Source of the DNA: an uncultured Clostridia bacterium
Lineage (GTDB): Bacteria; Bacillota; Clostridia; TANB77; CAG-508
Direction of reading: 5' to 3'
DNA length: 64,000 bases
NCBI GenBank assembly: GCA_944389125.1
Contig: CALXLF010000004.1
Coordinates: 70,234-134,233, forward strand
Positions 8,377 to 12,938 of this stretch are shown piece after piece. Both the position numbers and the translations under genes were made by a program. Positions within the stretch are counted from its first letter, which is position 1; each line of letters opens with the position of its first letter. The notes below the pieces were generated by a model. The model did no database searches. It was not told the DNA's origin and worked only from the letters and a program-made list of their open reading frames with translations.

Positions 8377-10149
8377 TCACTCATACTTATAGATTGCATC
8401 CTGATTGTATATTTTAAAGCCTCTTCCCGTAAATTCAAGTTTAGAAGCCTCATCTACCACACTGCATGGAAATTCTTTTGCAGTGCCTTTCAGGATATTA
8501 GTTCCCACTATCTTTCCATCATCCGGATCATAGATGGTATTGTTACAGAAATCAATATTACCAAGTGGCATTGCACTGTAACTAATTACATCATCATCAT
8601 ATTTTATCTTGTCCTTAGAAAAAACGATTGTCCTGAACTTACCATTAGAGAGCTGATATACAAAAAGCCAGTGATGCGTCACCTTATCATACTTGATTGC
8701 ATATTCATTAACCCAGCCAGTATAGTCAACATCAAAGTCATAAGAATCGGTATGAACACGCATTCTCTTCGGGTACATTGAGGCAACAAACACTCTGCCA
8801 TCTTCAGAAACCTCAAATAACGGTTTATAGCAAAGTCCCAAATAAGTAGGCTCATTACCTCTTGCAGTGATTTCAAGCTTTATAAAGTTATCCCCTTTGT
8901 CGACATAGTATATCACTTTATCCCTAACAAGATAATTTGTTTTGGGCATACGTTCAATAGTCGACATAAGCTTATCATTTGCATCATAAATCTTGATTTC
9001 ACTGGTATCGGCAACATAAGCTACTTTGCCATCATCTGAGAAATCTACTTTCTGTCCTCTTGGTACACTCACTTTTCTTCCACTTGCAATATGAACAGCC
9101 TGGTTATTCTTATTTAAGTAGTGATTACCACTTAAAATATACAAGCAGTCATTTGAGCTACTTGAAAAAACAACCACAAGCTGAGGTCCTTTTGCTCCAG
9201 GAACTGGCTTAACCCTAACAATCTTAGGAGCAGTTTTAACCTGTGCTTTATCATCACAAAGTGGACATCTGTTGTACTTTGAATAGTACCATGTATCATG
9301 CACCTTACAATACTCCAGATTATTCAGCAAATCTTCAAGATTAGGTGTAATATCAATTTTTTTACCATTCTCAAAGATCTGTAAGAAATCATCCAAAAGT
9401 TGAGGTGACATCCATTTCCAGCTTCCAATAATCTTTGGAATTTTAATATCTTTTCTGTATTTACCAACAACTGAAATACGTCTTCTCATTCTTTCCAATG
9501 TAGACATATCCTTGTCCGGCAGATATGTTCCACCAAAAGGATGTATTCTGGTCAAAATGTAAAATGTTAAAACTGCAAAATTATAATACTCATTCTCAAG
9601 AGAAAATTCTACAGTCTTATCAGGTTTGTATGAATCCGGGCATGTAAACATTTCAGTATAGGCATCAGGTGAAAACTTTCCGCTAACACCATAGCTGTCA
9701 ACATCAATGAAATAGTTTTTAAGTCCAATAATCTGGAAATTATAATCACTGATGTCTCCTACAATGATGCCCATATTATGAAGCTTAGTTAAATCAAGAC
9801 CAAAACTGGTCATTATCTTAAGTACATCTTTATTAGAAAGATGCATTGAAGCCAAATATTTTGGTTTGACCAGCATATGAAGATCTTCCGCTCCAACAAG
9901 TTTTTTCATAACATAACCAACAACATTACCACTAACCGTGGCTTCTTCTTGTGGTCCAATCACATTTTTGGGGAGCCTATTTTGAACTGTGATAAAAAAT
10001 CTTATTTTTTTACCTTTTATACTCAAATTAACTTTTGCGTGAAAAAGCTTAAGTACCGAATCTAAGCTATAATCATAAATAGCAGCTTCTCCACCTTCAG
10101 CCAATTTGTTTAACCGTTCAATCTCCCTTCTGCTACGAAAATTTGCCAT
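8377..10149 (-). CDS. Eukaryotic-like Ser/Thr protein kinase with a C-terminal zinc-ribbon and repeat region (YegI / TerY-P triad kinase-like)
   Basis: Kinase-like glycine loop and Lys region, catalytic-loop-like GIIVGDISDYN, and IDVDSYG. CPLCDD Zn-ribbon. About 250 aa of repeat-like C-terminus. Confidence 0.6.
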   Translation of the reverse strand: MANFRSRREIERLNKLAEGGEAAIYDYSLDSVLKLFHAKVNLSIKGKKIRFFITVQNRLPKNVIGPQEEATVSGNVVGYVMKKLVGAEDLHMLVKPKYLASMHLSNKDVLKIMTSFGLDLTKLHNMGIIVGDISDYNFQIIGLKNYFIDVDSYGVSGKFSPDAYTEMFTCPDSYKPDKTVEFSLENEYYNFAVLTFYILTRIHPFGGTYLPDKDMSTLERMRRRISVVGKYRKDIKIPKIIGSWKWMSPQLLDDFLQIFENGKKIDITPNLEDLLNNLEYCKVHDTWYYSKYNRCPLCDDKAQVKTAPKIVRVKPVPGAKGPQLVVVFSSSSNDCLYILSGNHYLNKNNQAVHIASGRKVSVPRGQKVDFSDDGKVAYVADTSEIKIYDANDKLMSTIERMPKTNYLVRDKVIYYVDKGDNFIKLEITARGNEPTYLGLCYKPLFEVSEDGRVFVASMYPKRMRVHTDSYDFDVDYTGWVNEYAIKYDKVTHHWLFVYQLSNGKFRTIVFSKDKIKYDDDVISYSAMPLGNIDFCNNTIYDPDDGKIVGTNILKGTAKEFPCSVVDEASKLEFTGRGFKIYNQDAIYKYE

Positions 10150-10164
10150 AAAATGGCCTCCTTC

Positions 10165-11190
10165 CTAGAAACAGATTGACAAGTCATCCTGAAAAATACT
10201 TCTTTTATGATTATTACGGTTAACGATCATTTCTATCTGAGCAGTTTTTCCTTTAGAAAGCATTTCCAAAAACTTATACTGTTCAGGCTCATAAAGTTCT
10301 CCAAAGTATCTTAGGCCATCACTAGCTACTCCCACATTGACATATTTATCTTTAGGATAGCGAGATACTTTAAAGTCTACACCTTCCTTATAATCAGAAA
10401 GCTTTTCAGGGTTAATCCAATTATAAATGTAGTATGCCGGAAATTCTCCATCATCGAGTTTTTCAAAAGCAATTCCATCAGCATCTTCTGTGATAATATA
10501 ACCATCTCCACAGCTATAAACCACAAATTCATCTTCGTATTCAAGACAAGCTAAAATTGTAAAACAGTAATTTTCGAAGATAAATGCTGTATCACTGCAG
10601 AGATATAACATGTTTTCCAGAACTGCATTTACAATTCCTGTAAATGCCTCTTCAGGAATTTCTCCATTCTCGATATGTGCTGCAAGATCATTCATGTCTT
10701 TTCCTACCACATATTTTTTTGTTCTTGCAACATTTTTTGTTTTAACACACTCCATGAATTTTACAACTTCTCGAGAAAAAAGCTGACCAAAAAGTCTTGT
10801 CCCCACTTCAGAATGCTTTCCTGAACCGCATCCGTCAGTAATAACCTTTAAGTTCATAAAACTAAATGCAAAATCCTGATTATTAACATTGCATCTAGTG
10901 TGCTCTACTCCAACTTTACTTACTTTTACAGTTTTCCTAGGAGCAAGCTTTTTCTCATCAGTATTGTCAGTTTCTTTAGATGATGTCTCAGCTTTTTCCG
11001 GAACAGACTGTTTATCAGTTTCCGATGCTGTAGATGCATTCTGAACAGGTTTTGATGATGTTTCTCCTTCTTTGATTTTAGAAGAATTATCATCATTTTT
11101 TGGAGTTTTATCTCCAGATTCAACTGGGATTTCTACTCCTTTTCCTTTCCGAACTCCTGCTCCTAATAAACCAGTATTAAATATATTCAT
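10165..11190 (-). CDS. PP2C-family Ser/Thr phosphatase with a low-complexity S/T/E/K-rich N-terminus (YegK/PphC-like)
   Basis: ITDGCGSGKHSEVG and later GVASDGL motifs typical of bacterial PP2C. A start at MNIFNTG has a gagaggag RBS. Confidence 0.55.
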   Translation of the reverse strand: MNIFNTGLLGAGVRKGKGVEIPVESGDKTPKNDDNSSKIKEGETSSKPVQNASTASETDKQSVPEKAETSSKETDNTDEKKLAPRKTVKVSKVGVEHTRCNVNNQDFAFSFMNLKVITDGCGSGKHSEVGTRLFGQLFSREVVKFMECVKTKNVARTKKYVVGKDMNDLAAHIENGEIPEEAFTGIVNAVLENMLYLCSDTAFIFENYCFTILACLEYEDEFVVYSCGDGYIITEDADGIAFEKLDDGEFPAYYIYNWINPEKLSDYKEGVDFKVSRYPKDKYVNVGVASDGLRYFGELYEPEQYKFLEMLSKGKTAQIEMIVNRNNHKRSIFQDDLSICF

Positions 11191-11992: not shown

Positions 11993-11999
11993 TTCCTCC

Positions 12000-12938
12000 T
12001 TAAACTAACTGAATATCTGTTGACTTTGCAAACTTAATACCATAAGTACGTTTGAAATTATCAAACGCATCTCTGGTAAGCTGCTCACACCCAGTGATCG
12101 GAGACGTGCAGTCTTCCAAAATTGTAATTTTGGTAGTAATCTCCGGACGAGTTGCATACTCTTCCGCAATCTGTTTTACACTTTCCATCAAGCAGTGACT
12201 AGCCGCTTCGCCGACAACGTAAATCTCATCGTACTGCTGGAAAGCATTTAAAACACGCGTATTCTTAAGATTTCTCTTAGAATACTCCGGACGAATGATG
12301 CCATACATCTCGGAATAGAAATCTGTTCCTTTGTGAATGATTCGCGGAATAGTCTTCCTTGCTGCCGCATGGAAATACACCATCTTTGCGAATTCATTCT
12401 CCAGGTCAAATCCTTCCGTACCATGAATGCAATGGTACGTCCAGATACAGAGTCTTTTCTTTGCCTGTTTCTCCAGTTCCTGAAGATAAGTCAAAGAATC
12501 CACCGGATTACCGTACACCGGTCTCCAAATACCATTGCTTACGTCATCGTACGTAATTTCCGTATACGGAGCAGGATTTTCACCATCTGCATTTTCCCAC
12601 CACGACGGGAAAAAAATGTGGAACGGATAGTGTGTGTCCATAGAGCACATGATATCCGTAATCCCTTCCATGTTGTTATAGATGAACTTAGTCATTCTTT
12701 CAACATCTCCAAGGGATCCCGGAACTCCAAGTGCTCCGCCTTCCATAAAATCCTTTTGCACATCAATGCAAAGAAGGAGTCTTCTTACAGAATCTCTACC
12801 ATTCGGTGTCAGCTTTTCCTGAAGTGCAAGATCAATGAGTCCAGGCTGTCCATTGAAATCCACCTTTCCGTGTTCTCCGATTTGTGATAAGTTCACAATC
12901 TGATCATAACTTGTCTTTAATGACATAACAAACCCCAC
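12000..12938 (-). CDS. pncA: Nicotinamidase/pyrazinamidase (isochorismatase-fold cysteine hydrolase) with N-terminal and internal extensions (312 aa)
   Basis: LLLCIDVQKDFMEGGALGVPGS matches the PncA IDVQNDF..GGSL motif, and VVGEAASHCLMESV carries the catalytic Cys. It is followed 7 nt later by the vWA gene, so the two are probably co-operonic. Confidence 0.7.
   Translation of the reverse strand: MGFVMSLKTSYDQIVNLSQIGEHGKVDFNGQPGLIDLALQEKLTPNGRDSVRRLLLCIDVQKDFMEGGALGVPGSLGDVERMTKFIYNNMEGITDIMCSMDTHYPFHIFFPSWWENADGENPAPYTEITYDDVSNGIWRPVYGNPVDSLTYLQELEKQAKKRLCIWTYHCIHGTEGFDLENEFAKMVYFHAAARKTIPRIIHKGTDFYSEMYGIIRPEYSKRNLKNTRVLNAFQQYDEIYVVGEAASHCLMESVKQIAEEYATRPEITTKITILEDCTSPITGCEQLTRDAFDNFKRTYGIKFAKSTDIQLV

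Follow-up and report, generated by a model that had tools for sequence, protein, structure and literature searches.

The question raised by the locus described here is why a gene for a predicted nicotinamidase should be followed, on the same strand, by genes for a von Willebrand factor A-type (vWA) protein, a PP2C-type phosphatase and a serine/threonine kinase. The locus lies in a 64,000-nucleotide (nt) stretch of DNA from an uncultured Clostridia bacterium (contig CALXLF010000004.1, positions 70,234 to 134,233; assembly GCA_944389125.1), hereafter the window, the positions of which are counted from its first letter. An earlier note on this DNA had likened the last three genes to the YegIKL and TerY-P signaling triads and suggested that phosphosignaling might be wired here to nicotinamide or NAD status. 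Comparative genomics bears out the linkage half of this suggestion, whereas the regulation of salvage by the triad is what we infer. The locus is best compatible with a module that salvages NAD+ by recycling nicotinamide along the Preiss-Handler route under phospho-regulation, a sequence-based reading to which we assign a probability of about 0.58.

Recurrence of the four-gene linkage

Four collinear open reading frames (ORFs) on the minus strand, from 12926 to 8377, encode the amidase, the vWA protein, the PP2C and the kinase, all present in the order and at the places given in the earlier note; the gaps of 7 nt (amidase/vWA), 64 nt (vWA/PP2C, 85 nt if counted to the ATG) and 15 nt (PP2C/kinase) are the same on re-measurement. 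The amidase ORF opens at a GTG at 12938 (and ends at 12000), the real start being the ATG at 12926, and the resulting product of 308 amino acids (aa) is the same, residue for residue, as a protein called in public assemblies. The PP2C ORF opens at a TTG at 11211 (and ends at 10165), with the likely start at the ATG at 11190, which is preceded by a Shine-Dalgarno sequence; the corresponding 341-aa form is the version called in public contigs.

The amidase homologs with 55–82% identity for which the context was looked up all show the same arrangement, namely amidase, a protein of ~230 aa, PP2C_2 and a protein of ~590 aa. Analysis of the genome scan loci with locally built hidden Markov models reveals the collinear cassette in Clostridia, a Prevotella metagenome-assembled genome (MAG) contig, several lineages of the candidate phyla radiation (CPR, Patescibacteria), a gammaproteobacterial MAG and Bradyrhizobium embrapense, and the cassette holds down to about 30% amidase identity. 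When the amidase is used as the anchor, the full cassette is present in 7/7 metagenome loci, 23 of the 66 evaluable reference-genome loci and 72 of the 77 viral contigs, and the triad is carried by approximately 40 of the 88 amidase clusters (85% identity). The reverse test, anchored on the kinase and run as two sub-alignments drawn from a 29-member kinase alignment, recovers all four genes in 71/75 and 70/80 viral loci (141/155 altogether). Over all scans, the viral carriers amount to 213 loci with 122 distinct protein pairs and ~76 kinase lineages. The gene order is permuted to PP2C-kinase-amidase-vWA in three loci (L156, L164 and L166), and the linkage is also kept through insertions. Hundreds of independent loci repeat this gene order, far more than chance would give, and we hold with high confidence that the four-gene linkage is functional. 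The earlier note had proposed neighborhood conservation as a check, with an arrangement unique to this strain, and a triad associated elsewhere with unrelated genes, as the contrary outcome; the arrangement is decisively not of that kind, recurring across phyla and phages.

The viral contigs with the cassette do, to judge from their sequences, come from phages. In locus L090, the cassette is adjoined by portal, Mu-F-like and major head genes; its neighbors are DnaB, primase and RNA-repair genes in L134 and a gene for an NAD-dependent DNA ligase in L131. These carriers include phages of 100–600 kb. In GenBank, the carriers are three uncultivated huge phage genomes (LR745208, LR756511 and LR756500) and one faecal fragment, with none among cultivated phages. 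The PncA-like gp275 of phage G, which is listed as “function unknown” in the paper on that phage (PMC12484599), does not match the amidase family described here.

Several phage loci show additional genes near the cassette. A ~495-aa DUF2828-DUF7788-vWA protein, that is, a second vWA protein, is encoded directly upstream of it in L090 (8460–9938) and L131 (7609–9105). The RNA-repair genes of L134, which represents a lineage of 75–165 kb phages, occupy positions 330–9968 and encode an RNA ligase, a Thg1-like protein, a CCA-adding enzyme and a Ro-like RNA-binding protein; the same locus contains a 321-aa ORF (12285–13250) between the PP2C and kinase genes, and the possibility that this ORF is a homolog of the ADP-ribosyltransferase described below was rejected (hhalign probability of 0.1%). 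In some jumbo phages, a second amidase paralog is located just past the kinase gene (L158/L364, 15475–16395; L400, 9950–10825).

The amidase and the triad

A search with the amidase yielded 463 homologs of ~304 aa. In an alignment of 26 sequences, the catalytic triad (D59, K203 and C249) and the metal site (D101, H103 and H169) are invariant, and H169 is matched to the part of Pnc1 (“WPVHC”) around its Zn ligand; the same six residues are kept in at least 95% of 73 cluster representatives, 40 of them triad-linked and 33 triad-less. A PDB search with the family profile identifies only nicotinamidases, namely Pnc1 (E 1.2e-9), PncA of M. tuberculosis and the enzymes from Pyrococcus and Acinetobacter. 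In Bacillales and Sphingobacterium, pncB and/or nadE are the immediate neighbors of triad-less orthologs of the same amidase, an arrangement that speaks for a true PncA function. The product of the first gene of the cassette is predicted to be a PncA nicotinamidase of the Zn type, the active site of which is intact. Among the four domain assignments of the earlier note, that of the PP2C is recovered at the default Pfam thresholds; the other three are not, and emerge only with family profiles.

The vWA protein contains a complete metal ion-dependent adhesion site (MIDAS), D44-x-S46-x-S48, T110 and D146, in which D44, S48, T110 and D146 are invariant and position 46 (S/T) is read off the alignment. 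Its Ser-rich C-terminal tail includes two invariant serines (S214 and S216) and a near-invariant one (S221), and its PDB matches to vWA domains are weak (E 2.5e-3). The metal-binding Asp motifs of the PP2C are invariant in the family alignment, and a PDB search detects similarity to Stp1 (E 5.7e-6) and tPphA. The PP2C of the window has an N-terminal low-complexity extension of ~85 aa, rich in Ser, Thr, Glu and Lys (10930–11190, minus strand), which most homologs (228–309 aa) do not have. The kinase consists of the kinase domain (residues 1 to ~275), directly followed by a CHCC Zn ribbon (C281, H284, C295 and C298, where the cysteines are invariant and the histidine nearly so) and a ~290-aa all-beta domain; the AlphaFold2 model shows no helix beyond residue 276. 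The kinase is soluble, with a maximum 19-aa hydropathy of 0.98 compared to 2.27 in YegI.

Profile-profile comparison with hhalign against E. coli K-12 proteins identifies the kinase as a homolog of YegI with the probability of 99.5% (E 1.3e-22), the vWA protein as a homolog of YegL with 96% (E 4.3e-9) and the PP2C as a homolog of PphC with 95.6% (E 1.1e-8), so that the likeness to YegIKL drawn in the earlier note extends to all three proteins. The likeness to TerY-P is borne out in part. According to a passage in PMC11090510 that summarizes Anantharaman, Iyer and Aravind (2012), TerY-P combines a vWA protein, a PP2C and a serine/threonine kinase with a C-terminal Zn ribbon, and the proteins of the window match this published description, but no PADLOC TerY-P model is matched by them, by 29 diverse kinase members (among 25 listed of the 28 matched families) or among the 3 vWA families matched. 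Among the kinase families listed, PADLOC returns only generic defense-kinase models for the kinase members, with weak scores (PD-T4-6, mad6 and MkoA). The three proteins are predicted to form a soluble triad of the TerY-P/YegL-PphC-YegI type, in which each protein retains its catalytic or metal-binding residues.

Links to NAD+ metabolism

In jumbo phages, genes of NAD+ synthesis are often interleaved with the cassette. The order is amidase-vWA-PP2C-pncB-nadE-kinase in L379 and L383, amidase-vWA-pncB-nadE-PP2C-kinase in L392, L398, L407 and L414, and vWA-PP2C-nadE-kinase-pncB in L442. In CPR loci, pncB and nadE are located just downstream of the cassette. Among bacterial loci, the cassette of L004 is surrounded by genes for NMNAT, NadE, an NrtR-type regulator and NaPRTase, and that of L001 is located beside genes for NadE, a phosphoribosyl pyrophosphate (PRPP)-synthetase-like protein and an NAMPT-like protein. 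In the window itself, pncB, nadE and an NMNAT gene are divergent from the cassette, as the earlier note had described (536 bits for pncB and 816 bits for nadE with NCBIfam models). The link to NAD+ extends beyond the identity of the amidase as such, given that pncB and nadE are interleaved with the cassette, that NAD genes adjoin it elsewhere and that the co-regulated neighbor in the window is an NAD+-consuming ADP-ribosyltransferase (ART).

The same two bacterial loci contain further genes of note. In L004, an NrtR-type Nudix regulator, a DUF5662 protein, a nucleoside deoxyribosyltransferase and two metallo-beta-lactamase-fold proteins (Pfam Anti-Pycsar_Apyc1) are encoded at 3735–4421, 14377–15846 and 18053–20091. 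In L001, the PRPP-synthetase-like (279 aa) and NAMPT-like (533 aa) genes (7037–9498) are directly upstream of the cassette and appear to resemble the Adps/Namat pair of the phage NAD+ reconstitution pathway NARP1.

Transcription units and the shared leader RNA

The earlier note had seen no terminator signals within the cassette and only a GC-rich hairpin in the vWA/PP2C gap. The hairpin was located (Table 1), and it is at this point that the claim fails: a terminator-like element, composed of a hairpin and a T-run, is kept after the vWA gene in 80 of the 125 distinct cassettes, compared to 7 with such an element after the amidase gene and 0 after the PP2C gene. The hairpin after vWA is conserved in position in Clostridia, gut phages and CPR, usually with a T-run; the copy in the window has a weak T-tail and was not flagged by the consensus scan. 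Because of this conserved internal hairpin, the cassette is not a simple uninterrupted operon; it probably comprises an amidase-vWA part and a PP2C-kinase part separated by a leaky terminator, which would create two tiers of expression.

The gene upstream of the amidase, which the earlier note had left as a second gene of unknown function, encodes an ART of the R-S-E type, with the characteristic fold and the Arg, Ser-Thr and Glu-x-Glu motifs. This gene forms a transcription unit by itself, having a promoter (12/12 consensus match) and a terminator that are not those of the amidase operon, and is restricted to one clade of Clostridia.

A dedicated leader common to the amidase operon and the upstream gene, another claim of the earlier note, is present: the two copies are ~80% identical over ~100 nt and correspond to a ~90-nt element downstream of each promoter. 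The leader also precedes the amidase and ART genes of L005–L012 (16 nhmmer matches) and is present in L053. In L013, it is present although the amidase there has no triad; the 593-aa and 247-aa ORFs of that locus are unrelated to the triad proteins, and the idea of a hidden divergent triad was rejected. The leader follows the NAD-related genes rather than the triad.

In independent minimum free energy folds, the leaders consistently form P1 (UUUGC/GCAAA) and a long P2, together with the GUC-AAUU-GAC hairpin, which is invariant. In an alignment of 13 related sequences, N-padded and hand-curated to the proposed structure, 97.1% of the cells are paired compared to 40–45% when the partners are slid, six pairs show compensatory double changes, a number matched by 0/500 shuffles, and the covariation score is 0.227 versus 0.104. 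The hand-curated alignment was used instead of MAFFT alignments, from which RNAalifold gave the short hairpin alone because the helix strands were mis-registered. A search of Rfam 15 finds nothing at the gathering threshold, and a scan at E<=10 finds only non-significant overlaps (E 6.8–8.1, far below that threshold) with unrelated, non-NAD families. When metagenomes are scanned for the leader core GTCAATTGACN{0,2}AGCAAA, 120 matches result; nhmmer detects the leader in 0/80 fetched loci, so that these are chance matches. Two other explanations of the element were considered. A leader peptide (AAGGAGG...ATG) was rejected, given that the start varies (ATG, GTG, TTG, TAG and AAG), that a 2-nt indel breaks the frame and that the segment is the 3' strand or the loop of a helix. 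The reading of GTCAATTGAC as a mere operator palindrome is disfavored: single-sided changes in the palindrome and the covariation of the flanking helices favor RNA. The leader could, instead of binding a ligand, be bound by a protein.

Table 1. Genes and regulatory elements at the cassette locus (window positions)
Feature	Position	Strand	Basis
Long-form PncA-type nicotinamidase (predicted), 308 aa	12000..12926	-	Conserved active-site residues; PDB family-profile matches
TerY/YegL-like vWA protein, 238 aa, complete MIDAS, Ser-rich C-terminal tail	11276..11992	-	Alignment; hhalign; PDB
PP2C-type Ser/Thr phosphatase, 341 aa	10165..11190	-	Pfam PP2C_2 E 2.7e-10
YegI-like Ser/Thr kinase, 590 aa, soluble	8377..10149	-	Kinase domain, CHCC Zn ribbon and all-beta domain
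GC-rich hairpin GAAGGAGG-CCGCACTGCGA-CCTCCTTC, vWA/PP2C gap	11212..11238	-	Sequence; fold -24.5 kcal/mol
Intrinsic terminator closing the cassette	8270..8312	-	19-bp stem and T-run
Leader RNA copy 2, before the amidase operon	12966..13047	-	nhmmer E 5.4e-10; compensated change in P1, TTTAC/GTAAA
Promoter of the amidase operon, TTTACA-17-TAAAAT, TG-extended	13072..13100	-	Consensus scan
Intrinsic terminator closing the ART transcription unit	13142..13182	-	18-bp stem and T-run
R-S-E type mono-ADP-ribosyltransferase (ART), 314 aa	13228..14172	-	NAD+-consuming, nicotinamide-releasing
Leader RNA copy 1, before the ART gene (P1, P2, GUC-AAUU-GAC hairpin)	14211..14294	-	nhmmer E 6.7e-12
Promoter of the ART gene, TTGACA-16-TATAAT, TG-extended	14321..14348	-	12/12 consensus match
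pncB, nicotinate phosphoribosyltransferase, divergent	14499..16064	+	NCBIfam NF006695, 535.8 bits, above cutoff
nadE, glutamine-dependent NAD+ synthase	16135..18081	+	NCBIfam NF002730, 815.9 bits
NMN/NaMN adenylyltransferase, archaeal/NadM type	18139..18798	+	Match to Pfam CTP_transf_like; sub-cutoff matches to NMNAT models of NCBIfam (E 1e-18)

Genomic setting of the cassette in the window

The stretch at 8–18 kb that contains the ART gene, the cassette and pncB-nadE-NMNAT has a GC content of 0.34–0.38 compared to 0.22–0.30 around it, which could reflect horizontal acquisition of the NAD cluster or simply the presence of conserved enzymes in an AT-rich genome. An origin from a prophage or mobile island was rejected on account of housekeeping flanks and the lack of an integrase or transposase in the region, the higher GC content being the sole remaining hint. 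Directly past the kinase terminator, the minus strand encodes an N6/N4 DNA methyltransferase (7163–8191) with no evident cognate restriction enzyme, and near-identical public contigs have the same neighbor. Elsewhere, the window contains a T-box leader (37478–37697, minus strand, 110 bits) and two tRNA genes (29272–29342 and 29470–29540, plus strand); therefore, it is a stretch of a Firmicutes-type chromosome.

Proposed mechanism and alternatives

Under the preferred reading, that of a phospho-regulated salvage module, nicotinamide would come from the cleavage of NAD+ by the neighboring ART, by other NAD+ consumers or, during phage infection, by NADase immune effectors. The amidase would convert it to nicotinate, from which PncB, NMNAT and NadE would rebuild NAD+. 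The kinase, with its beta-rich putative sensor domain, would act on the vWA protein by phosphorylating its Ser-rich C-terminal tail, probably in addition to autophosphorylation, and the PP2C would reverse the modification, so that the phosphorylation state of the vWA protein would set the activity, assembly or localization of the amidase and the salvage enzymes. The leaky terminator after the vWA gene would make the amidase and the vWA protein abundant and the PP2C and kinase scarce, and in this clostridial lineage, the amidase operon and the ART gene would each also be subject to the same structured leader RNA. The most likely role of the cassette in phages would be to restore NAD+ after the action of host NADase defenses, together with host or phage PncB and NadE. 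A broader version of this scenario, which we offer as tentative and on balance doubtful, is that the cassette, together with the pncB and nadE interleaved in huge phages, represents a fourth phage pathway of NAD+ reconstitution, deamidating (Preiss-Handler type) and gated by a Ser/Thr phospho-switch that responds to infection or NAD+ status, and that the leader represents a new class of pyridine-nucleotide riboswitches.

Several observations weigh against the salvage module. The amidase scores far below the curated cutoffs (NCBIfam PRK11609, 31.6 vs 174 bits, E 1.4e-7; Pfam Isochorismatase, 16 vs 27) and, because of the low score against the NCBIfam PncA model, its substrate specificity is deduced from the active-site residues and the context. 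In the 73 cluster representatives, no amidase residue is specific to the triad-linked members; therefore, nothing in the sequence marks the amidase itself as the regulated target, which speaks for one and the same enzyme in the presence and absence of the triad and for the tail of the vWA protein, rather than the amidase, as the phospho-acceptor. In gut phages of the L090 type, pncB or nadE is found within 10 kb in just 4 of the 72 loci (36/213 overall), so that NAD+ synthesis in those without these genes would need the host to finish it. YegI is an active kinase with two transmembrane segments, the substrates and stimulus of which are unknown (bioRxiv 10.1101/819920). TerY-P triads are otherwise tied to restriction and defense (PMC11090510), which leaves room for a role in conflict other than salvage. 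The small size and hand curation of the leader alignment also belong here.

The strongest alternative takes up that last role: the purpose of the cassette would be to remove nicotinamide rather than to make NAD+. In bacteria, a sensor of the TerY-P type would turn on the amidase upon infection and thereby starve the phage NARP1 or NARP2 enzymes of nicotinamide, their substrate; alternatively, in both bacteria and phages, the removal would relieve product inhibition of sirtuins and of ARTs such as the neighboring one. Such a conflict module would be in line with the homology of the triad to YegI, PphC and YegL, with the stand-alone antiphage activity of TerY-P-like modules and their association with restriction systems described in a passage of PMC11090510, and with the leader shared with the R-S-E ART. 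It would also fit the lack of pncB and nadE in most gut-phage cassettes, the atypical GC content of the region and its DNA methyltransferase neighbor, and the weak kinase matches to the PD-T4-6, mad6 and MkoA models. However, pncB and nadE encode enzymes that turn the product of the amidase into NAD+, and these genes repeatedly lie inside the jumbo-phage cassettes and beside those of CPR and Clostridia. Such an arrangement would be difficult to account for were NAD+ synthesis of no importance, and it weakens the conflict scenario. Moreover, neither TerY-P nor any other system is matched at the system level in PADLOC, the cassette has no conserved nuclease or toxin effector as a companion, the ART occurs in a single clade and the flanks of the window locus are housekeeping genes rather than a defense island. 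On these grounds, nicotinamide removal as the purpose appears rather unlikely.

A second alternative concerns the substrate: the “nicotinamidase” might act on a different amide, for instance a nicotinamide-containing nucleotide or an immune-signaling molecule, with the triad regulating that activity and the neighboring NAD genes pointing to a chemistry that is related but not the same. The isochorismatase-like superfamily is catalytically diverse, and the protein exceeds canonical PncA in length by ~120 aa and has insertions and an extension at the N terminus, in addition to scoring below the thresholds of the curated PncA model and of Pfam Isochorismatase. Conversely, the full PncA signature (D-K-C triad and D-x-H/H metal site) is kept in at least 95% of the cluster representatives, the family profile retrieves nothing but nicotinamidases from the PDB and the triad-less orthologs adjoin pncB and nadE, all of which makes a different amide substrate improbable. 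Finally, it is very hard to believe that a mobile TerY-P-like triad merely landed beside pncA and spread by horizontal transfer with no function in the linkage, even though TerY-P triads are described in part of PMC11090510 as mobile and promiscuous in neighborhood and, in Bacillales and Sphingobacterium, the amidase does without the triad, considering that the four genes stay together down to ~30% amidase identity and through permutations and insertions, that all catalytic residues are retained, and that 141/155 kinase-anchored viral loci keep the four genes, with ~76 viral kinase lineages carrying the cassette.

Novelty and significance

The earlier note was aware of no described linkage of such triads to NAD salvage, and none is found in the searchable literature: in full text, no paper brings vWA and PP2C together with a nicotinamidase, with PncA or with an isochorismatase, the founding TerY-P paper being outside the scope of this search, so that a passing mention there is possible. 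The survey of viral NAD+ and ADP-ribose systems from the Aravind laboratory does not mention nicotinamidase, PP2C or TerY (PMC9503650). PncB, NadE and nicotinate are not mentioned in the paper on NARP1 and NARP2, and nicotinamidase does not appear in the NARP papers.

The depletion of NAD+ by bacterial immunity and its rebuilding by phages is a highly active front in the study of phage-host interactions. The three described phage routes, NARP1–3, are amidated and have no regulatory layer, and the cassette would add a deamidating route tied to reversible phosphorylation. It is widespread, both among phages (uncultivated huge phages and gut phages) and among bacteria (CPR and Clostridia), and it offers the TerY-P and YegI-PphC-YegL triads a concrete, testable partner, namely an enzyme with a simple assay in a pathway with measurable metabolites. 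If true, the interpretation of the cassette as a fourth reconstitution pathway would give these triads their first physiological output. The by-products of the analysis are a cytoplasmic clostridial ART co-regulated with nicotinamide recycling and an uncatalogued structured leader RNA that precedes both.

Comparison with known systems

The amidase shares with PncA and Pnc1 (M. tuberculosis PncA, 3pl1; yeast Pnc1, 2h0r) the Asp-Lys-Cys triad, the Asp/His/His metal site and the genomic coupling to pncB and nadE, but is ~300 aa long, compared to 180–220 aa in the canonical enzymes, has an N-terminal extension and insertions, and falls below the curated family thresholds; the coupling to a kinase/phosphatase/vWA triad is unique to it. 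Unlike the R-S-E ARTs of the C3, VIP2 and iota type, the ART of the window contains neither a signal peptide nor a toxin-delivery domain; it is chromosomal and cytoplasmic, carries helical extensions at both termini and has a leader in common with an NAD-salvage operon. This leader, like the NAD+ riboswitches of class I (nadA motif) and class II (pnuC motif), is a structured 5' element before NAD-metabolism genes; its architecture, with P1, the long P2 and the invariant GUC-AAUU-GAC hairpin, is different from theirs.

The kinase and YegI have in common the GGEG loop, the catalytic-loop segment (IGDLNDxN as the consensus here, VGDVNQNS in YegI) and IDxDS, and in the vWA protein, the Ser-rich tail at the C terminus is conserved out to YegL of E. 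coli. YegI, however, crosses the membrane twice (bioRxiv 10.1101/819920). The kinase described here is instead soluble and carries a Zn ribbon and a beta domain, and the E. coli yegI-yegK-yegL locus has a different gene order and includes no nicotinamidase or NAD genes.

As in TerY-P, a TerY-like MIDAS vWA protein, a PP2C and a kinase with a C-terminal zinc ribbon form a module attached to another system. In a passage of PMC11090510, TerY-P is hypothesized to be a metal-sensing phospho-switch joined to restriction and DNA-processing systems, and variants with an oligonucleotide/oligosaccharide-binding (OB) fold are described as stand-alone antiphage systems. The partners of TerY-P are restriction, DNA-processing or tellurite genes, whereas here the partners are the nicotinamidase and NAD-salvage genes; in addition, the kinase has the extra ~290-aa all-beta domain beyond the Zn ribbon, and the module is very common in phages.

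The closest functional parallel is with NARP1 (Adps and Namat), NARP2 (Nampt and Nmnat) and NARP3 (PnuC and an NadR-like protein; PMC13464706), in which phage enzymes likewise act on the breakdown products of NAD+, with a plausible role against NAD+ depletion. The cassette does not contain the enzyme pairs of NARP1–3, none of which includes a nicotinamidase or a signaling module; it contains PncA, with or without PncB and NadE, and would proceed by deamidation via nicotinate. The new elements are a triad of the TerY-P/YegIKL type with a new metabolic partner and a candidate phage route to NAD+.

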